This document shows, one piece after another, positions 3,019 through 58,685 of a DNA stretch of 64,000 nucleotides; position 1 is the stretch's first letter, and each line of letters opens with the position of its first letter. The notes below the pieces were generated by a model. The model was not told the origin of the DNA and did no database searches. It saw only the letters and a list, made by a program, of their open reading frames with translations. This DNA is from Parcubacteria group bacterium. Lineage in GTDB: Bacteria; Patescibacteriota; Minisyncoccia; Phycocordibacterales; UBA2135. A program made the position numbers and the translations under genes. Where the stretch lies: NCBI GenBank assembly GCA_016204045.1, contig JACQLQ010000001.1, positions 106,766-170,765 of the forward strand, written 5' to 3'.

Positions 3019-3356
3019 AGCTCATCCTCGACCTTATTGATTGTGATAAGGATGCCATTAGCTCAAAAGAGCATATCACTGCGTACGCAAAAGAACTTTG
3101 CCGCGTTATTGAGATGAAGCCATTTGGCGAGCCATTTGTTGAGCGGTTTGGACTCGGTAAGGACTTCACAGCCGGATACTCATTGGTGCAACTTATCGAG
3201 ACGAGCTCAATCACTGGACACTTCTCCGAGCTCTGGGGAAGGGCGTATATCAACATTTTCTCGTGTGCAGAGTTCGACACCAATCGGGCCGCAGAGTTTA
3301 CGATGAAACACTTTGGGGCGAAAGATGCCAACAAGCACGTGTTGCATCGTGGGTAG
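2976..3356 (+). CDS. speH: S-adenosylmethionine decarboxylase proenzyme, paralog 2 (SpeH-like)
   Basis: GVELILDLIDCD...LVQLIETSSITGHFSE...AYINIFSCAEFD is a classic small bacterial/archaeal AdoMetDC. The start may be 2949 or 2976. Confidence 0.7.
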   Translation: MEQKKTNNEKEFGVELILDLIDCDKDAISSKEHITAYAKELCRVIEMKPFGEPFVERFGLGKDFTAGYSLVQLIETSSITGHFSELWGRAYINIFSCAEFDTNRAAEFTMKHFGAKDANKHVLHRG

Positions 3357-5790: not shown

Positions 5791-6014
5791 TAATCGGGGT
5801 GGGCAGACGCTTCGCTATCTCACTCTTTGGAAACCCACGTCCCTATTGCCTGCCAGCATACGCTGGCAACGGCAATTTCGCTTTGCGAATCGGATGAAAA
5901 GCAAAGCAGTTTGCTTTTCATTTCTACTCCGCCCCTCGACGGGCTCGGGGCTGCCTTCCTCCACGGGAAAACTACAGTTTTCCCGACCCCTTTCGTGTTC
6001 GGTTCTGCCCACCC
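5791..6014 (-). ncRNA. tRNA-linked structured RNA element, copy L1 (~224 nt, unknown family)
   Basis: Minus strand. The 5' end ggtgggcagaaccgaac is the reverse complement (16/17) of the T-arm/acceptor 3' region of the upstream tRNA-Pro(CGG). The 3' end tctgcccaccccgatta is an exact 17-nt direct copy of that tRNA's 3' end plus 3-nt trailer. The core shares blocks with copy L2, including a covarying hairpin (gggaaaac/gttttccc here against ggggaaaca/tgtttcccc in L2), gaggaaggcag and gtttccaaagagtgagatagcgaagcgtct. A -10-like tagtatatt lies just upstream. Confidence 0.6.
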
Positions 6015-6064
6015 TCTAAAAATATACTACACAAACAAAAAAGTTTGTTTCGTCATTTTTATAA

Positions 6065-6135
6065 TCGGGGTGGGCAGAATCGAACTGCCGCTACGGAGTC
6101 CCGAACCCCGCGTACTACCACTATACTACACCCCG
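6065..6135 (-). tRNA. tRNA-Pro (anticodon CGG)
   Basis: Acceptor cggggtg/caccccg, anticodon stem cgggg/ctccg with loop ttcggga (anticodon CGG, G37), T-arm ggcag-ttcgatt-ctgcc. Confidence 0.75.
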
Positions 6136-15144: not shown

Positions 15145-15215
15145 GCGGGATTAGTTAAATGGTATAACATCAGTTTTCCAAACTGAGGTCGGGAGTTCGA
15201 TTCTCCCATCCCGCA
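15145..15215 (+). tRNA. tRNA-Gly (anticodon TCC)
   Basis: Acceptor gcgggat/atcccgc, anticodon stem tcagt/actga with loop tttccaa (anticodon TCC), T-arm gggag-ttcgatt-ctccc. Confidence 0.7.
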
Positions 15216-15270
15216 TTAAATGAAATTTTCGTACCTTTAGGTACCGAAATTTTATCTCATTGGGTATAAT

Positions 15271-15396
15271 GGGAGAATCGAACGGGAAGGGGGTCGGGGA
15301 AACACATGTTTCCCCGTAGAGGAAGGCAGGGCGAAGCCCGTTGGAAAACCGCAGGTTTCCAAAGAGTGAGATAGCGAAGCGTCTCCCATCCCGCAT
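15271..15396 (+). ncRNA. tRNA-linked structured RNA element, copy L2 (~125 nt)
   Basis: Extended -10 tgggtataat sits immediately upstream. The 5' end tgggagaatcgaac is the perfect reverse complement of tRNA-Gly positions ~53-66. The 3' end tctcccatcccgcatcaaatg is a direct copy of the tRNA-Gly 3' end plus trailer (tctcccatcccgcattaaatg). The core is homologous to L1 with a compensatory hairpin. It ends 3-4 nt before the start of the downstream HAD-phosphatase gene. Confidence 0.6.
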
Positions 15397-46208: not shown

Positions 46209-46437
46209 TCTCGCTCCCTCAACCACACTACGTTCTGTAGTAAGCGTATGGTTTTTTGAAATAAGGTCAAGCCCCCACACCTTTCATGCTGTCGTTGTGC
46301 GGAGGACGATGATGCACTGACCAGTATGGAGCTCCGCAGACCGACGTGGAATATATAATTGTTCCCAAAAACAACAGTCCGCAACAGCACGAAAGGTGTG
46401 GGGTCAAGTTTAGCACCCCAATAGTGTTAGTGGTATT

Positions 46438-48117
46438 ATGGTACTATCGGTTCAAGTCATGATTCAGGAAAAACTTAAAGAGATGATACAAGAAACGTTG
46501 CGTGAACTCGGCATTGAAGCTGGGGACATTCACTTGGAACATCCGACGGAGTTTGTGCATGGAGATTTTGCGACAAACGTCGCTATGTCCGTGGCAAAAA
46601 AGGCAAAAACAAATCCTAAGGCGCTTGCAGAGCAGATTGTCGCAAAGATAAATGAGAGCAAAGATAAAGATATCGAAAAAGTTGAAGTGGCTGGTCCCGG
46701 CTTCATTAATATCCACCTTTCGCCAGCTTTTTTTGCGGACAGCGTTAAAAAAATCGTGGACCAAGGAGATGTGTGGGGCAAGAATGATGCATTTGTGGGA
46801 AAAAAGGTGATGGTGGAATACACAGACCCAAACCCGTTTAAGGAGTTTCATATCGGACACCTCATGTCGAATGCGATTGGAGAATCCATTGCCCGGCTTA
46901 TTGTATTTGGTGGCGCAGAAGTTAAGAGATCAAATTGGCAGGGTGATGTTGGTCCTCATGTTGCGAAAGCTATTTGGGGAAAGATGCAAAAGCCTGAACT
47001 GAAATGGGGCGAGGCGTATACATATGGAGCAGAACACTATGAAGAGCGGAAAGAAGAAATTAATGGGATCAACGAGAGGGTGTATGCCAAAAGCGACCCG
47101 ACGGTTAACGAGTTATATGAAGAAGGCCGCGCCTCTTCGCTCGCACACTTTGAAGAACTCTATAAAATACTGGGGACATCTTTTGATTATTACTTCTTTG
47201 AGGGAAAAGAGGGACTCTTGGGAAAACCAATTGTCGAAGAGTTTCTAAAGAAAGGCATTTTTGAGGAGAGTGACGGAGCGGTCATTTTTAAGGGCGAGCA
47301 ACACGGTCTCCATACACGTGTCTTCGTGACTTCGCGCGGATTGCCGACCTATGAGGCGAAAGAACTCGGGCTCAACAAAGTAAAGTTTGAAAGGGAGCCG
47401 GATTTGGACCTCTCAATTATCGTAACCGCGAACGAGCAAACTGATTACTTCAGAGTGCTGCTTAAAGTGATTGAGCTTATTTTTCCTATTATTGCTGCAA
47501 AGACAAAACACATTGCTCACGGTGTCATGAAACTTGCCTCGGGCAAGATGTCCTCGCGCAAGGGGAACGTGATAACAGGCGAGTCGCTCATCTCCGACGT
47601 GAGAGCATTGGCGCGGGAAAAGGTTCGAGAGGGAAATCGTGCCCAAGACAATACCGAGGCCCTTGCTGAAGCAATAGCAGTTGCCGCGATCAAATACTCG
47701 ATATTGAGACAAGGAACAGGCAGAGACATCGTCTTCGATTTTGAACAATCCCTCTCCTTTGAGGGCGATTCGGGTCCCTATCTCCAATACACCCATGCGC
47801 GGGCGAAATCGATCTTACGTAAAGCAGGAGAACGCGGGACGGTGTCCACCAAGGAAAACAGAGATGTGGGCGAAGTCGAACGACTACTATATCGTTTCTC
47901 AGAAGTTACAGCGCGCGCTGCGAAAGAGTATGAACCGCATTATGTCACGACGTATCTTACAGAACTCGCGGGAGCGTTCAACACTTTCTATGCGAAAGAA
48001 CGTATTTTAGACGCGGGAGAAGATGCGCCCTATCGCTTGCTTTTGACGCAGGCGGTGGCAACGACACTCAAGAATGGTCTCCACCTCCTGGGCATTAAAG
48101 CACCGGAGGTAATGTAA
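46438..48117 (+). CDS. argS: arginyl-tRNA synthetase
   Basis: EYTDPNPFKEFHIGH (HIGH motif) and a C-terminal anticodon-binding domain, about 559 aa. Confidence 0.85.
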   Translation: MVLSVQVMIQEKLKEMIQETLRELGIEAGDIHLEHPTEFVHGDFATNVAMSVAKKAKTNPKALAEQIVAKINESKDKDIEKVEVAGPGFINIHLSPAFFADSVKKIVDQGDVWGKNDAFVGKKVMVEYTDPNPFKEFHIGHLMSNAIGESIARLIVFGGAEVKRSNWQGDVGPHVAKAIWGKMQKPELKWGEAYTYGAEHYEERKEEINGINERVYAKSDPTVNELYEEGRASSLAHFEELYKILGTSFDYYFFEGKEGLLGKPIVEEFLKKGIFEESDGAVIFKGEQHGLHTRVFVTSRGLPTYEAKELGLNKVKFEREPDLDLSIIVTANEQTDYFRVLLKVIELIFPIIAAKTKHIAHGVMKLASGKMSSRKGNVITGESLISDVRALAREKVREGNRAQDNTEALAEAIAVAAIKYSILRQGTGRDIVFDFEQSLSFEGDSGPYLQYTHARAKSILRKAGERGTVSTKENRDVGEVERLLYRFSEVTARAAKEYEPHYVTTYLTELAGAFNTFYAKERILDAGEDAPYRLLLTQAVATTLKNGLHLLGIKAPEVM

Positions 48118-48237
48118 TCCCGATAGTGTTAACACGAGTATAGAGCGTTCGCTCACTTGGGGCGTATACTATTGGGTAGGATGTTTTACAAGGTATGAAA
48201 ATTACGGTCGTGCAAGCACGACCTAACACTATCGGGA
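48118..48237. repeat. inverted-repeat element, copy 1 (arms tcccgatagtgtta / taacactatcggga flanking ~92 bp)
   Basis: 14-15-nt perfect inverted arms starting at the argS stop codon, with an internal hairpin (cgtgcaagcacg). The arms match those of the element at 58444-58565. Confidence 0.55.
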
Positions 48238-48278
48238 TGTAACAGCACACTTGCAAAAAACGGTTCGAGGCCGATAAT

Positions 48279-48602
48279 GTGGAAAGAGGGTACATGGGGG
48301 CGTATATGGCTGATAAGACCCCAGTTGTTAGATTGCAGTGGGGAAGCAACGGATGGGTTGTCGAAGACGTCACGGAGACGTCTCTCGAGGGGGTTATAGC
48401 CATCCTTACTTTTCTCGTAACCAAAGCGCCACGTTTTGTTGCCTCTTATGGGAACATTCGATTTGCAATGGAATCTCCATTCCCCATTGCAGAGAAGATT
48501 CGCTCCGTGCTTATACCCGTTGTAGAAGGGTGGGCTCTTTGGAGGGCGAACGATAGTTGTCGCGACGATCTTATTTTTACTTTTGAGAAAGGGCCCCAGT
48601 AA
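48279..48602 (+). CDS. hypothetical protein (107 aa)
   Basis: ORF between argS and ileS on the same strand. No motif. Confidence 0.35.
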   Translation: MERGYMGAYMADKTPVVRLQWGSNGWVVEDVTETSLEGVIAILTFLVTKAPRFVASYGNIRFAMESPFPIAEKIRSVLIPVVEGWALWRANDSCRDDLIFTFEKGPQ

Positions 48603-48650: not shown

Positions 48651-51600
48651 ATGTCGAAGGCAGAAGATTCTCAAAAAAAGAGCATTGCTGACCTCGAAAG
48701 AGGAATACTCCGCTTCTGGAGTGATAACAAGATTTTTGAGAAGTCCCTTGCCAAGAAGTCTCCTAAGGGCGAGTTTACTTTTTATGATGGCCCTCCTTTT
48801 GCGAATGGCTTGCCCCACTACGGTCACATCCTCACTGGTGTTATTAAAGACGCGATACCTCGTTTCCAAACGATGCGTGGCTATCATGTTAACCGTCGCT
48901 GGGGATGGGATTGCCACGGCCTTCCTGTCGAGTATGAGATAGAAAAAGAACTTGGACTCAAGACAAAGCGCGAGATTGAGGAATACGGCATAGAAAACTT
49001 TAACAAAAAAGCCCGCGAGGCAATCATGCGCTATGCGGGTGATTGGCGCCAAATCATCCCAAAAACAGGGCGGTGGGTTGATATGGATCGCGACTACCGT
49101 ACGATGGACTCGTCGTACACCGAATCAGTGTGGTGGGTCTTCAAGTCGCTCTATGATAAGGGACTCGTTTACGAAGGCTTCAAGCCAATGCACCTTTGTC
49201 CTCGCTGTGAGACAACGCTCTCGAACTTCGAGGTGAGCCAGGGATACAAAGACGTGACCGACATTTCTGTGACGGTGAAGCTACCGTTAAAAAAAGAGCC
49301 GGAAACCTCCCTCCTTATTTGGACTACAACGCCGTGGACACTTCCTGGCAATATGGCTGCGGCGGTTAATCCGAGTACCTCATATATCAAATACAAACTT
49401 CTTGATACCGAGGTCCCCGCGGGGGAGTTTGTTATTATCGCCAAAGATCGAGGTGCCGAGATCCTCAGAGATAAGAAGTACGAAATAGTCGAAGAATTTA
49501 CAGGTGACAAACTTGTAGGTCTTTCTTACACCCCACCCTTTGCCTACTACACGGACGCCACACTAAAGCACAAAGGGCATGCATGGAAGGTATACGCAGC
49601 AGACTATGTTACAACGACTGATGGCACTGGAATTGTGCATCTGGCGCCAGCGTTCGGAGAAGATGACCTAAGGCTCGCAAAAGAAAACGACATACCTGTC
49701 GTGCATCATATTGGAACAGACGGAAGATTCAAAAAAGAAGTTACTGACTTTGTCGGTGAAATGGTAAAGCCCATACAGGATTTGCAGGCAACTGACGTGC
49801 TCGTCTTGAAGAACTTATCTCACCGAGGACTTCTTTTCGCAAAAGAGAAGATTACTCACTCGTATCCGCATTGTTGGCGATGCGATACACCGCTTTTGAA
49901 TTACGCCGCAAGTTCATGGTTTGTAAAAGTGACCGCCATCAAAGATGATCTCATAAAAGCAAACAAGAAAGTTTCATGGGTCCCGGAAGATATTCGTGAC
50001 GGTAGGTTTGGAAAATGGCTCGAGGGTGCGCGCGACTGGGCAGTGTCTCGTTCGCGGTTTTGGGGAGCGCCAATCCCCGCATGGAGATGTCAAAAATGTG
50101 AACGCTTAGAGATCGTCGGCTCACTCACTGAACTGCGAGAGAAGAGTGCGGATTCAGGTAATACGTTCTTCATCATGCGGCACGGCGAGGCGCGAAGTAA
50201 CAAAGAAGGATTTGTGAGCGCCTCCATCCATGCAGGCAACCACCTTACGGAAAAAGGCAAAAAAGAAGTTGATAAAGCAGCGAAGTTTCTGCGGAGACAA
50301 AATATCGATCTCATCATTGCCTCTCCACTCGAACGTACCAAAGAGACAGCGCTTCGCACAGCAAAAAACATCGGGCTCAAAAAAGATAAAGTTATCTTCT
50401 CCGACCTCATTCGAGAGGTGGGCGTTGGTGTGTATGAAGGGAGGCCACTTTCAGAATGGCGTTTACAATTCCCTTCATTGGAAGATAAATTTAAAGTGCG
50501 TCCGGATGGTGGCGAGAACCTGCCCGACTTGAAGGGGCGCGTTACATCTTTCCTCTACGAACTTGAGCGTAAATATACAAATAAGAACATTCTTATTGTT
50601 TCCCATGCTGATCCGCTTTGGGCGCTTTACACGGGGGCACTCGGGTACACGGAAAAACAAGCGATTGAAGCGCATGGGAGAAAGAAGGATTTCATAAAAA
50701 CAGCAGAAGTAAAAAAACTTCCTTTTGCACCATTACCGCATGACGAAATGCATGCACTCGATTTGCACCGCCCCTACGTCGACGAGGTGAAGTTTAAATG
50801 TCTCTGTGGAGGGAAAATGAAGCGCGTACCAGAAGTCTTTGACTGCTGGTTTGAGTCTGGCGCAATGCCGTATGGGCAAATGCACTACCCGTTTGAAAAC
50901 AAAGACACCTTCGATCCAGAAAAGAAACGGGGATTTCCTGCGAACTTTATTGCAGAGGGACTTGATCAAACAAGAGGCTGGTTCTACTCACTTATCGTCC
51001 TTGGGGTTGCGCTCTTTGGAGAGAGCCCATACAAAAACGTCATCACCAACGGTCTCGTTCTCGCGGAAGATGGACGAAAGATGTCGAAACGACTCAAGAA
51101 TTACCCTGAGCCAACAGATATTATGGCGAAGTATGGTGCGGATGCATTGCGTCTCTATCTCATCTCATCTCCTGTAGTACGCGCAGAAGATCTTCGCTTT
51201 AGTGAAGATGGTGTTCGAGAAATACAAAACAAAATAGTGAGTCGCCTTCGAAATGTGGCATCTTTTTACCACACGTATGCCCTTGATGCAGTGAAAGGGA
51301 CGAGTGTTCCAAAGTCAAACAACGTTCTGGATACATGGATCCGTGTGCGTCTTACTGAAGTAGTCAACAAGGTCACAGAGGCGATGGAGCACTACGAGCT
51401 TGATAAAGCCATCCGTCCGATTGGCGAATTTATCGAAGATCTATCGACGTGGTATCTCCGAAGATCGCGCGACCGCTTTAAGTCAAAAGACGATCTTGAC
51501 CGCAAGAATGCAATAGCAACGACGAGCTATGTGCTGACAGAAATTGCCAAACTCATTGCTCCGTTTGCGCCTTTTGTTGCCGAAGAAATATATCAATCTA

Positions 51601-52244
51601 TTACCTCCAACATGGAGAGTGTTCACCTCGAAACGTGGCCCAAGTATGAACCTCGTTTCCCAATCTGGCCCAATCCGATGGCGCTTTTTCACCGTATTTT
51701 CAGATCCCATGGTGACATAAAGATTCTCGAAGACATGGCAGAGGTGCGACGCATTGTGTCAGTGGCTCTCGAAGCTCGCGCAAGCGCGGGTATTAAGGTG
51801 CGTCAACCATTAGGGAAACTTACTGTTAAGAACAGTAAGACAAAAATTGCGGGTAATGAAGATCTGCTCACGCTCATTAAGGATGAGGTTAATGTAAAAG
51901 AAGTTATTTTTGACGCCGCTCTTGTTACAGATGTCGCACTAGACACAGAAATTACCGAGGAGCTTAGAGAGGAAGGAGTCCTTCGCGACCTCGTTCGCGT
52001 TGTGCAAGATCTGCGTAAAAAAGAAGGATTGCATCCTGGAGACTCTGCGACGCTCTTTATACGCGGGGGTGTCCAAGAAGTTCAGTTTATCAAGAAGTTT
52101 GAAGAGCAACTTAAAGACTCAACAACCGTCGGCGTCATTGAGTTTCGAGATGATGTACAAGGGGAGGAGGCGAAGATCGACACATTTTTGTTTGCTTTAG
52201 CTCTAAACACTCCGACGCTTTCGGCATCTACTAAAAACGAATAG
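48651..52244 (+). CDS. ileS: isoleucyl-tRNA synthetase with an inserted histidine-phosphatase (PGAM-like) domain
   Basis: PHYGHILTG (HIGH), editing CP1 domain, KMSKRL (KMSKS) and anticodon-binding domain are all present. An extra ~192 aa (nt ~50156-50730) carries IMRHGEARSN (RHGxxxN) and IVSHADPLW (second catalytic His). It lies between the conserved WRCQKCERLE...ELREKSADS and DLHRPYVDE...VFDCWFESG blocks. Confidence 0.8.
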   Translation: MSKAEDSQKKSIADLERGILRFWSDNKIFEKSLAKKSPKGEFTFYDGPPFANGLPHYGHILTGVIKDAIPRFQTMRGYHVNRRWGWDCHGLPVEYEIEKELGLKTKREIEEYGIENFNKKAREAIMRYAGDWRQIIPKTGRWVDMDRDYRTMDSSYTESVWWVFKSLYDKGLVYEGFKPMHLCPRCETTLSNFEVSQGYKDVTDISVTVKLPLKKEPETSLLIWTTTPWTLPGNMAAAVNPSTSYIKYKLLDTEVPAGEFVIIAKDRGAEILRDKKYEIVEEFTGDKLVGLSYTPPFAYYTDATLKHKGHAWKVYAADYVTTTDGTGIVHLAPAFGEDDLRLAKENDIPVVHHIGTDGRFKKEVTDFVGEMVKPIQDLQATDVLVLKNLSHRGLLFAKEKITHSYPHCWRCDTPLLNYAASSWFVKVTAIKDDLIKANKKVSWVPEDIRDGRFGKWLEGARDWAVSRSRFWGAPIPAWRCQKCERLEIVGSLTELREKSADSGNTFFIMRHGEARSNKEGFVSASIHAGNHLTEKGKKEVDKAAKFLRRQNIDLIIASPLERTKETALRTAKNIGLKKDKVIFSDLIREVGVGVYEGRPLSEWRLQFPSLEDKFKVRPDGGENLPDLKGRVTSFLYELERKYTNKNILIVSHADPLWALYTGALGYTEKQAIEAHGRKKDFIKTAEVKKLPFAPLPHDEMHALDLHRPYVDEVKFKCLCGGKMKRVPEVFDCWFESGAMPYGQMHYPFENKDTFDPEKKRGFPANFIAEGLDQTRGWFYSLIVLGVALFGESPYKNVITNGLVLAEDGRKMSKRLKNYPEPTDIMAKYGADALRLYLISSPVVRAEDLRFSEDGVREIQNKIVSRLRNVASFYHTYALDAVKGTSVPKSNNVLDTWIRVRLTEVVNKVTEAMEHYELDKAIRPIGEFIEDLSTWYLRRSRDRFKSKDDLDRKNAIATTSYVLTEIAKLIAPFAPFVAEEIYQSITSNMESVHLETWPKYEPRFPIWPNPMALFHRIFRSHGDIKILEDMAEVRRIVSVALEARASAGIKVRQPLGKLTVKNSKTKIAGNEDLLTLIKDEVNVKEVIFDAALVTDVALDTEITEELREEGVLRDLVRVVQDLRKKEGLHPGDSATLFIRGGVQEVQFIKKFEEQLKDSTTVGVIEFRDDVQGEEAKIDTFLFALALNTPTLSASTKNE

Positions 52245-58381: not shown

Positions 58382-58443
58382 CTAATAAAGAGTACGCAAC
58401 CGAGGTTTCCCCTCGGTTTTTCTATTGAAATGATAGGGATTGA

Positions 58444-58565
58444 CCCCGATAGTGTTAGCGGACGTCTTATTGATTGTGGTGAGTAAAGATAAAGGGGTTG
58501 TGGAGCACCACAAAAGATGAGAAAACGGACTTAAATCCTGCATCCGCGTCCTAACACTATCGGGG
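58444..58565. repeat. inverted-repeat element, copy 2 (arms ccccgatagtgttag / ctaacactatcgggg flanking ~92 bp)
   Basis: 15-nt perfect inverted arms. The internal sequence is unrelated to copy 1 but also forms a hairpin (ttgtggtg...caccacaa). Confidence 0.55.
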
Positions 58566-58685
58566 TTGACTCTTTCTTGCAGTTTGCTATAGTGGTAGAA
58601 ATCGCAATCGGTGCGCGTTTTTCGTTTTGAAGGTAGCGCCGAATAAGCATTAATAAGTAATTAATTATTAGTAAAAAACATTTTT

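Follow-up and report, generated by a model that had tools for sequence, protein, structure and literature searches.

Two inverted-repeat elements in a Parcubacteria genome are insertions of a tiny mobile family that prefers start codons and may depend on an 86-aa GIY-YIG nuclease

Two loci in a 64-kb stretch of DNA from a Parcubacteria group bacterium (64,000 nucleotides; the window, from here on), one following argS and the other preceding tuf, are built from the same inverted arms around dissimilar interiors, raising the question of what kind of element they are. The original prediction described perfect 14-15-nt inverted arms around 92 nt at both loci, which the sequence confirmed, and from the apparent variability of the cores favoured a structured RNA, a recombination site or a REP/BIME-like family over MITEs. 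Our analysis leads to another answer: taken as a whole, the explanation we consider probable is that both elements, designated e1 and e2, are MITEs and belong to a family of very small transposable elements in Patescibacteria, their mobilisation and their coupling to host translation being the parts that we infer. Their features are as follows.

48113..48117, + strand: left target-site duplication of e1, TGTAA, a direct repeat
48118..48131, + strand: left terminal inverted repeat of e1, TCCCGATAGTGTTA, read from the sequence
48132..48205, + strand: core of e1, divergent sequence (profile searches)
48206..48223, + strand: subterminal hairpin of e1, GGTCGTGC-AA-GCACGACC, abutting the right repeat; the conserved, covarying feature of the family
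48224..48237, + strand: right terminal inverted repeat of e1, TAACACTATCGGGA, exact complement of the left arm
48238..48242, + strand: right target-site duplication of e1, TGTAA, a direct repeat
58440..58443, + strand: left target-site duplication of e2, TTGA, a direct repeat
58444..58458, + strand: left terminal inverted repeat of e2, CCCCGATAGTGTTAG, with a terminal pair of the C..G type
58459..58550, no strand assigned: core of e2, divergent; the equivalent of the subterminal hairpin is weak
58551..58565, + strand: right terminal inverted repeat of e2, CTAACACTATCGGGG, complement of the left arm
58566..58569, + strand: right target-site duplication of e2, TTGA, the first four bases of the tuf -35 box

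The elements measure 120 bp (e1) and 122 bp (e2), with 92 nt between the arms in each. Their arms, perfect over 14-15 nt or over 15-16 nt with one flanking pair added, share the form YCCCGATAGTGTTA, and as a sequence pattern the pair was written CCGATAGTGTTA on the left and TAACACTATCGG on the right. The exact 12-mer CCGATAGTGTTA occurs four times in the window, only in the arms of e1 and e2, against about 0.01 occurrences expected per 128 kb; with up to two mismatches, the window holds 9 matches versus 3.35 ± 1.9 in shuffled sequences. Folding of the + strand against shuffles gave z = -6.2 and -6.35 for the two elements. Rfam 15 covariance models produced no match to e1 or e2 at the gathering score, and none at E ≤ 1. 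A GIY-YIG profile likewise matched neither element, no GIY-YIG ORF occurs within the 64-kb window, and the e1 core has no protein-domain match.

The flanking direct repeats of e1 and e2 are additional to the original description. The left TGTAA of e1 overlaps the end of argS, including its stop codon TAA (48115-48117) and part of its last codon, ATG. The right TTGA of e2 opens the -35 box of the tuf promoter (TTGACT, 58566-58571), which is followed after a 16-nt gap by the -10 box TATAGT (58588-58593).

Both elements are missing from the closest available relative, the JACQLS01 MAG (EF-Tu 96% and ArgRS 77% identical). There, argS ends uninterrupted (...GTCATGTAAagg, contig L068), e1 is absent, and ileS begins 90 nt after argS with no element between them. 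The tuf promoter block, GGGGTTGACTCTTT...TATAGTGG, is conserved in contig L069 of the relative with its target uninterrupted, and nothing upstream of it corresponds to e2. Three further pairs of filled and empty sites, with flank identities of 92-99%, were found in other collected contigs (L003_6478 versus L034 and L026; L028_624 versus L067; L015_1421 versus L028); in one example, the empty ...gtaactATGAAcaaaaaag contrasts with a filled site that reads ...gtaactATGAA, then the element, then ATGAAcaaaaaag. Because direct repeats flank them and the closest relative lacks them and has an uninterrupted target, e1 and e2 are insertions, not RNA genes or recombination sites; duplications and empty sites also dispose of the REP/BIME reading.

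A 107-codon ORF (48279-48602) lies between e1 and ileS and has no counterpart in the relative; set against the 90-nt argS-ileS gap there, it indicates that the intergenic region is variable. The ileS product (48651-52244, 1197 aa) contains a His_Phos_1 histidine-phosphatase match inside its tRNA-synthetase domains, as does that of the relative. Elsewhere in the window, the 3' ends of tRNA-Pro and tRNA-Gly recur as partial, inverted copies (5997-6085 and 15195-15283) at a distance of 53-59 nt from the genes, possibly left behind by integration events.

A third, left-arm-like copy had been proposed near 46417. The sequence CCCCAATAGTGTTAG is indeed present at 46416-46430, but it is no better than chance and has no partner arm: about 0.3 one-mismatch arm matches of this kind are expected by chance, and nhmmer scored the copy at E = 0.4-1.6. 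Moreover, the closest relative has homologous native sequence at this place, including ACTATC, a possible apparent right arm. Judging from these comparisons, the copy probably reflects chance, and the idea of an internally deleted remnant was rejected given the homologous native sequence. At 46273-46403, just upstream of argS, we observed a separate inverted-repeat element with other arms (CCCCACACCTTTCATGCTGT and ACAGCACGAAAGGTGTGGGG), which enclose 91 nt; its fold has a z of about -5.8. TCAAG stands on both flanks, and the corresponding place in L068 holds a single GGTCAAG and no element; with such flanks and an empty site, it looks like another MITE-like insertion.

We then asked how widely the arms of e1 and e2 are distributed. 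Scans of the collection, which required perfect arms with 77-107 nt between them, detected 15 elements across four Patescibacteria MAGs (two Saccharibacteria, one "Patescibacteria group" and one "Parcubacteria group", taxonomy as given in the database records) and others in 54 metagenome contigs. In total, 66 loci and the window hold at least 82 elements, all of 114-132 bp except for one of 203 bp. Since perfect arms and a short gap were required, these counts are minima, and by design the scans excluded any full-length element with such arms. The motif is therefore not unique to the two loci, as the same arms bound 82 elements here and elsewhere, and the dispersed inverted-repeat family of the original prediction, with the arms as its most conserved part, is real. 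Viral contigs contained no elements, whether the arms were allowed a short or a long spacing, and no homologue of the nuclease described below; a plasmid collection had no match for e1 or for that 86-aa nuclease. All arms in the collected loci are paired, except for contig-end cut-offs and L056. In the latter (3113-3340), the right arm of a family element is split into TAACACTA and TATCGGGA by about 95 nt belonging to another small inverted-repeat element (CCCCAAGTGAGGAAG...), i.e. a nested insertion. An 88-nt unit that starts TCCCGAT and ends ATCGGGA, present as two inverted copies 1.4 kb apart in L010 (567-654 and 1894-1981) and as the same pair in L058, may be a shorter relative of the family.

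The outermost base pair is T..A in 46 of 49 unique insertions and C..G in the other three, with mixed pairs in none. As it covaries, this pair was counted within the repeat, which sets the duplication at 4 bp for the family; that of e1 is 5 bp. The four nucleotides are identical on both sides in 38 of the 49 insertions, and the commonest sequences are TGAA (27), TGGA (8) and TGAG (4). At 41 non-tandem sites, the target logo reads A (37), T (38), G (36), A/G (39) and A (37), so that the reconstructed target is the five-base A-T-G-R-A, and no further position is conserved. These data show that the preferred target, A↓TGAA, is a start codon plus the next two bases. Upon insertion, the last base of the element (A or G) and the duplicated TG rebuild ATG or GTG in front of an intact host ORF. 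The element lies exactly on a start codon opening a long ORF at 36 of the 49 unique sites, as compared with 10.8% of all ATGRA sites in the same loci that are the first ATG of a long ORF, although the copies are related by descent and the statistics for ORFs and for orientation do not come from independent samples. Four further insertions of the 49 lie upstream of a start-codon copy in a tandem array.

Occupied genes include those for L31, L29, S3, SecY, TopA, PyrG and DnaE. Pfam models start at residues 1-7 of the host ORFs for L31, L29 (twice), CTP synthase, the TopA Toprim domain, the DnaE PHP domain and a P-type ATPase; for instance, residues 1-63 of L31 correspond to profile positions 1-63, and residues 2-265 of CTP synthase to positions 1-264. 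S3, SecY and a beta-CASP RNase were also matched among the host ORFs. The occupied codons are thus genuine start codons, and the genes are essential ones. The elements essentially keep to one orientation: the covarying hairpin (see below) lies beside the host gene, and start-codon copies all point one way. The reverse target, TTCA, was used by two copies only, neither at a gene start.

Many left flanks carry TATAAT 5-11 nt before the ATG. Targeting of the transcription start of leaderless genes was nonetheless rejected as a requirement, because operon-internal genes (rpsC, rpmC) are also hit. Host genes of family elements are without Shine-Dalgarno sequences. In the window, no Shine-Dalgarno-like sequence precedes the ribosomal-protein, fusA and tuf genes (54467, 54898, 55398, 58686, 60319 and 62148) and several genes have a -10-like box just 5-12 nt before the ATG; these two observations suggest that this organism initiates translation in an SD-independent or leaderless manner.

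Measured against this target, e1 and e2 occupy near-consensus off-target sites, apparently without harm: the e1 site is the ATG-TAA that ends argS, and the e2 site is the TTGA of the tuf -35 box, a box made whole again by the duplication. Two or three elements in tandem, with one duplication common to neighbours, were observed in L042 (866-1231), L013 (3470-3711), L007 (3833-4085) and L011 (1673-2003). The two members of the L007 array belong to different subfamilies, indicating repeated insertion into a regenerated target; in the L013 and L042 arrays, the upstream repeats read ATAAG in place of ATGAG.

The cores had been described as unrelated. This holds for e1 and e2, which do not align with each other, but not for the family: in 52 distinct sequences, which form 27 clusters at 80% core identity, the cores are related and have a conserved hairpin in common. 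Judged by sequence, e1 and e2 are two divergent members of a family with related cores. The hairpin, which is conserved across the family, lies beside the right arm and has ACGG before it. Its stem covaries, with compensatory changes in four of eight pairs and 99.3% of cells paired, a value that drops to 25-52% in a control with the partners slid. Element e1 has a typical family hairpin (48206-48223), whereas e2 is a divergent member, and since its equivalent hairpin is only weak its orientation is ambiguous.

On the sense strand, an ATG-initiated ORF usually passes through the hairpin into the right arm and stops either at a TAA within the arm (position -13) or at a TGA formed by the duplication, which overlaps the host ATG (+1). 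The mean length of ATG-ORFs running into the right arm is 15.4 codons in sense versus 5.2 in antisense, where the arm sequence is the same, and sense mini-ORFs also exceed shuffles in length and are more frequently both open and ATG-initiated than shuffles or the antisense strand; a sense ATG-ORF of at least 10 codons is absent from 10 of the 27 core clusters. Variability at the three codon positions (0.73, 0.60 and 0.75) is weakly coding-like, and selection at the amino-acid level could not be demonstrated from it. A conserved peptide was rejected, for want of a Pfam match and of a clearly coding-like pattern of variability. An outward sigma-70 promoter within the element was rejected too, since no position-conserved -35/-10 pair exists in the 27 core clusters.

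The argument that variable cores set these elements apart from MITEs is not supported: all structural hallmarks of MITEs are present. The elements are shorter than 600 bp and non-coding, have terminal inverted repeats and a target-site duplication, and occur as many dispersed copies with insertion polymorphism, i.e. empty sites. Their mini-ORFs show no domain match, hence the short elements contain no transposase gene.

Searching the collected loci for YCCCG...CGGGR inverted repeats revealed sister families with the same ends, length, hairpin and ATGAA duplication and with other arms (TCCCGTTAGAAAC, TCCCGTTAGAGA and CCCCGTAAAACTACATCGAT). Their MITEs, of about 118-124 bp, were found at these positions.

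L003: 4525-4646
L018: 890-1008 and 5840-5958
L026: 2282-2399
L004: 903-1020 and 1955-2071
L013: 1403-1526

The element at L026_2282 has empty sites, at 98% identity, in L003, L030, L034 and L037. Full-length sister elements of about 275 bp, with ends YCCCGTTAGAGA, contain as their sole ORF an 86-aa GIY-YIG nuclease. For instance, the 274-bp element at L032 1481-1754 encodes an 86-aa protein that matches PF01541 (GIY-YIG) at E = 2.9e-18, with 66 bits against a cut-off of 22.6. Twenty nuclease sequences all retain the Tyr/Tyr-Thr-Gly motifs and the conserved His-Asn, Glu and Asn positions, and Arg 24/26 is nearly invariant among them. By sequence, the closest solved structure is UPF0213 protein BH0048 (PDB 1ZG2; E = 8.6e-7, residues 2-66); similarity to the group I intron endonuclease family TIGR01453 is weak (28.7 bits, under the cut-off of 56).

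The nuclease has more than 3200 homologues (database clusters), at 70-80% identity, and it is 70-80% identical across Patescibacteria, Elusimicrobiota and Flavobacteriales. Among the best 120 of these homologues, 73 are exactly 86 aa long and 73 have the C-terminus KRFLSLTG, which is the translated right repeat TTTCTCTAACGGGA; the 86-aa ORFs stop directly after this repeat, with a stop codon supplied by the flank. At least 11 of the same 120 start with M[NS]PVR[DE], i.e. host ATGA[AG] followed in frame by the left repeat TCCCGTTAGAGA. Five full-length contexts (L032, L070, L085, L092 and L093) display a perfect TGAA duplication at a host start codon, and in all five the nuclease stop is the TGA of the duplication overlapping the rebuilt host ATG (ATGA). 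The nuclease ORF starts at the captured host ATG or just after it; in L092 and L093 it must start at the captured ATG, as there is no internal one. The ends of L085, TCACG.../...CGTGA, represent a compensatory change. Repeats without a clear duplication are present in L072 (Elusimicrobiota MAG), L073 (Flavobacteriales MAG) and L075 (metagenome contig), and among the collected loci no full-length GIY-YIG element has an empty counterpart. L049 (5435-5680) and also L064 contain another kind of small GIY-YIG ORF (MYYVYILESLKDRGHYVG...), which is preceded by the left-repeat-like CCATACGTTAGAA, with no matching right repeat seen.

One element links the nuclease to the arms of e1 and e2. L061_314, of 124 bp, has the arms CCCGATAGTGTTA of e1 and e2 themselves and matches the GIY-YIG profile at residues 2-15 (E = 0.007) and 58-86 (E = 2e-9), fragments that mark it as what internal deletion has left of an element with CCCGATAGTGTTA ends and the nuclease gene. 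The scans, which took gaps of 77-107 nt only, recovered no full-length element whose arms are exactly these, and profile searches detected no nuclease-gene homology in hairpin-type MITEs, e1 included. The original prediction had considered that the arms might match those of an insertion sequence with a transposase; related full-length elements do exist, but they carry a GIY-YIG nuclease rather than a known transposase. Together, our results show that e1 and e2 belong to a mobile family with repeats at its ends, which generates duplications and has A↓TGAA at start codons as its preferred target; that they are non-autonomous derivatives follows from the full-length sister elements and the gene fragments in L061_314. 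The sequence comparisons suggest that the 86-aa GIY-YIG nuclease encoded by full-length relatives mobilises them in trans.

The main rival to mobilisation by the nuclease is an ordinary MITE moved by the conventional DDE transposase of an unseen insertion sequence, with the 86-aa gene as a passenger. Terminal inverted repeats and a duplication of fixed length are the classic signature of DDE transposases, and this family has both, with 4 bp as the fixed length. GIY-YIG enzymes, for their part, are hydrolytic nucleases, and we know of none that performs strand transfer. The hairpin-type MITEs have no sequence in common with the nuclease gene, and such a transposase might exist elsewhere in these genomes. 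Nevertheless, about 520 kb of collected loci contain no transposase-sized unit within these or similar repeats. An autonomous DDE insertion sequence in these loci was rejected, since the arms are paired and a long-range inverted-repeat scan found none. The nuclease ORF is also built into the element: the right repeat supplies its C-terminus, the duplication often supplies its stop and a captured host ATG, in L092 and L093, supplies its start. Finally, its 70-80% identity across three groups and its mostly exact length of 86 aa fit a gene maintained by the element. We therefore regard a conventional transposase as unlikely, while taking it seriously.

Far less probable are two other readings. 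A structured non-coding RNA, or a cis-regulatory long-stem RNA with a host function, would account for the very stable folds (z about -6), for the covarying subterminal hairpin with a few G-U pairs on the sense strand and for the usual position of the elements within transcribed 5' regions; it is contradicted by target-site duplications and empty sites. The elements also precede unrelated genes and occur in tandem arrays, e1 and e2 have only their arms in common, and no Rfam family was matched even at E ≤ 1, which together make this reading very improbable. We give hardly more than nominal weight, and the least of all, to site-specific recombination sites (attC-like, hairpin-bounded cassettes) or paired operators of a DNA-looping regulator. 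The constant spacing of the inverted arms, about 106 bp from centre to centre or some 10 helical turns, would suit such sites, but the ORF context includes neither an integrase nor a cassette array nearby, and filled and empty sites show that the element itself was inserted with a target duplication. Insertions occur at the start codons of unrelated genes, and the arms differ among sister families yet stay complementary.

Among known systems, bacterial MITEs are one of the closest to e1 and e2. The Correia/NEMIS elements of Neisseria are MITEs with 26-bp repeats and a TA duplication that are thought to depend on a conventional transposase; they insert beside genes, can restore promoter parts and are co-transcribed with their neighbours as long hairpins. 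Our family resembles them in its size of about 100-150 bp, terminal inverted repeats, target-site duplication, dispersed copies and lack of coding capacity. It differs in having 14-15-bp repeats and a 4-bp TGAA duplication, in lying exactly on start codons in one orientation, whereas Correia/NEMIS elements follow no start-codon or orientation rule, and in its coding relatives, which carry a GIY-YIG nuclease. Mobile insertion cassettes (MICs), i.e. repeat-flanked passenger genes without a transposase, are likewise very short units with terminal inverted repeats, a duplication and one small non-transposase gene. However, the passenger gene of a MIC is independent of the ends, whereas the nuclease ORF runs into the right repeat and often takes its stop from the duplication, and some copies use the start codon of the host gene.

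The full-length elements recall free-standing GIY-YIG homing endonuclease genes (T4 seg/mob, I-TevI family), which are also selfish units with a GIY-YIG nuclease as sole gene. Homing enzymes have about 200-250 aa, including a DNA-binding domain, and act on one cognate allele through homologous repair; their genes lack terminal repeats and duplications. Here, by contrast, the protein has 86 aa, the targets are many unrelated genes with only ATGRA in common, and the elements have repeats and a 4-bp duplication, on which grounds a homing endonuclease gene was rejected. UPF0213/YhbQ-type proteins (1ZG2, BH0048), of about 90-100 aa, resemble the nuclease in consisting of a single GIY-YIG domain. 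They are annotated as cellular proteins of unknown function, and we know of no report of their being bounded by inverted repeats or inserted at start codons.

IS200/IS605 elements and their PATE derivatives are similar in being very small, with hairpin-forming ends, short specific targets, oriented insertion and miniature derivatives, but they have no terminal inverted repeats, produce no duplication and use an HUH (Y1) transposase, differing from our family in all three respects. REP/BIME sequences, which are associated with RAYT (Y1), consist of imperfect palindromes of about 20-40 nt that often cluster and do not duplicate their target; they were discarded because the units here are about 120 bp with a duplication and their insertion was seen directly. 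Integron attC sites, with R''/L''-L'/R' core sites at the 3' ends of cassettes, lie in an array beside an integrase. They were discarded as well: the ORF context holds no array and no integrase, and the duplication falls at start codons.

How might so small an element move and be tolerated? If it is mobilised by the nuclease, the enzyme would make the cuts and host repair or ligation would complete the insertion, the alternative being an unseen transposase. At start codons, host expression would be kept by translational coupling: translation of the mini-ORF or of the nuclease ORF through the right arm would open the long stem and end at -13 or +1 relative to the host ATG. Given the symmetry of the arms, the strict orientation points to selection on a strand-specific feature, and the sense ORF, the full-length nuclease ORF and the ATGA overlap fit the idea of coupling. 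Quite possibly, although we propose it only tentatively, the arms are the ends of an unrecognised class of prokaryotic transposon whose only protein is the 86-aa GIY-YIG nuclease. Such an element would parasitise start codons, borrowing host transcription and, in some copies, the host start codon, and would hand ribosomes back to the host gene through the overlapping TGA/ATG; the hairpin elements of about 120 bp, e1 and e2 among them, would be its non-autonomous parasites.

MITEs are a known kind of element; the capture of start codons, the fixed orientation and the GIY-YIG partner set this family apart. Neither these elements nor such a transposon turned up in literature searches by topic and by sequence string. 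The one related item lists a GIY-YIG protein, in a passing mention, among genes horizontally transferred from Patescibacteria (PMC12455944). For annotation, the elements yield false N-terminal extensions (MNPVRE..., MNPDSV...) and spurious small ORFs in gene calls of Patescibacteria.

Should the nuclease prove to be the mobility enzyme, the family would represent a new class of transposon. Its full-length member of about 275 bp would be smaller than any autonomous transposable element known, and no DNA transposon before it would have used the GIY-YIG fold. It might come with a new transposition chemistry or a new, repair-dependent route of insertion, and the abundant, unexplained 86-aa "GIY-YIG nuclease family proteins" (more than 3200 database clusters) would be tied to a mobile element. 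It would also explain how mobile DNA persists in the small, gene-dense genomes of CPR bacteria, which have almost no intergenic space: insertion would occur where transcription and translation come free, and the rebuilt start codon would let essential genes, such as those for ribosomal proteins, SecY, TopA, DnaE and PyrG, tolerate the element.
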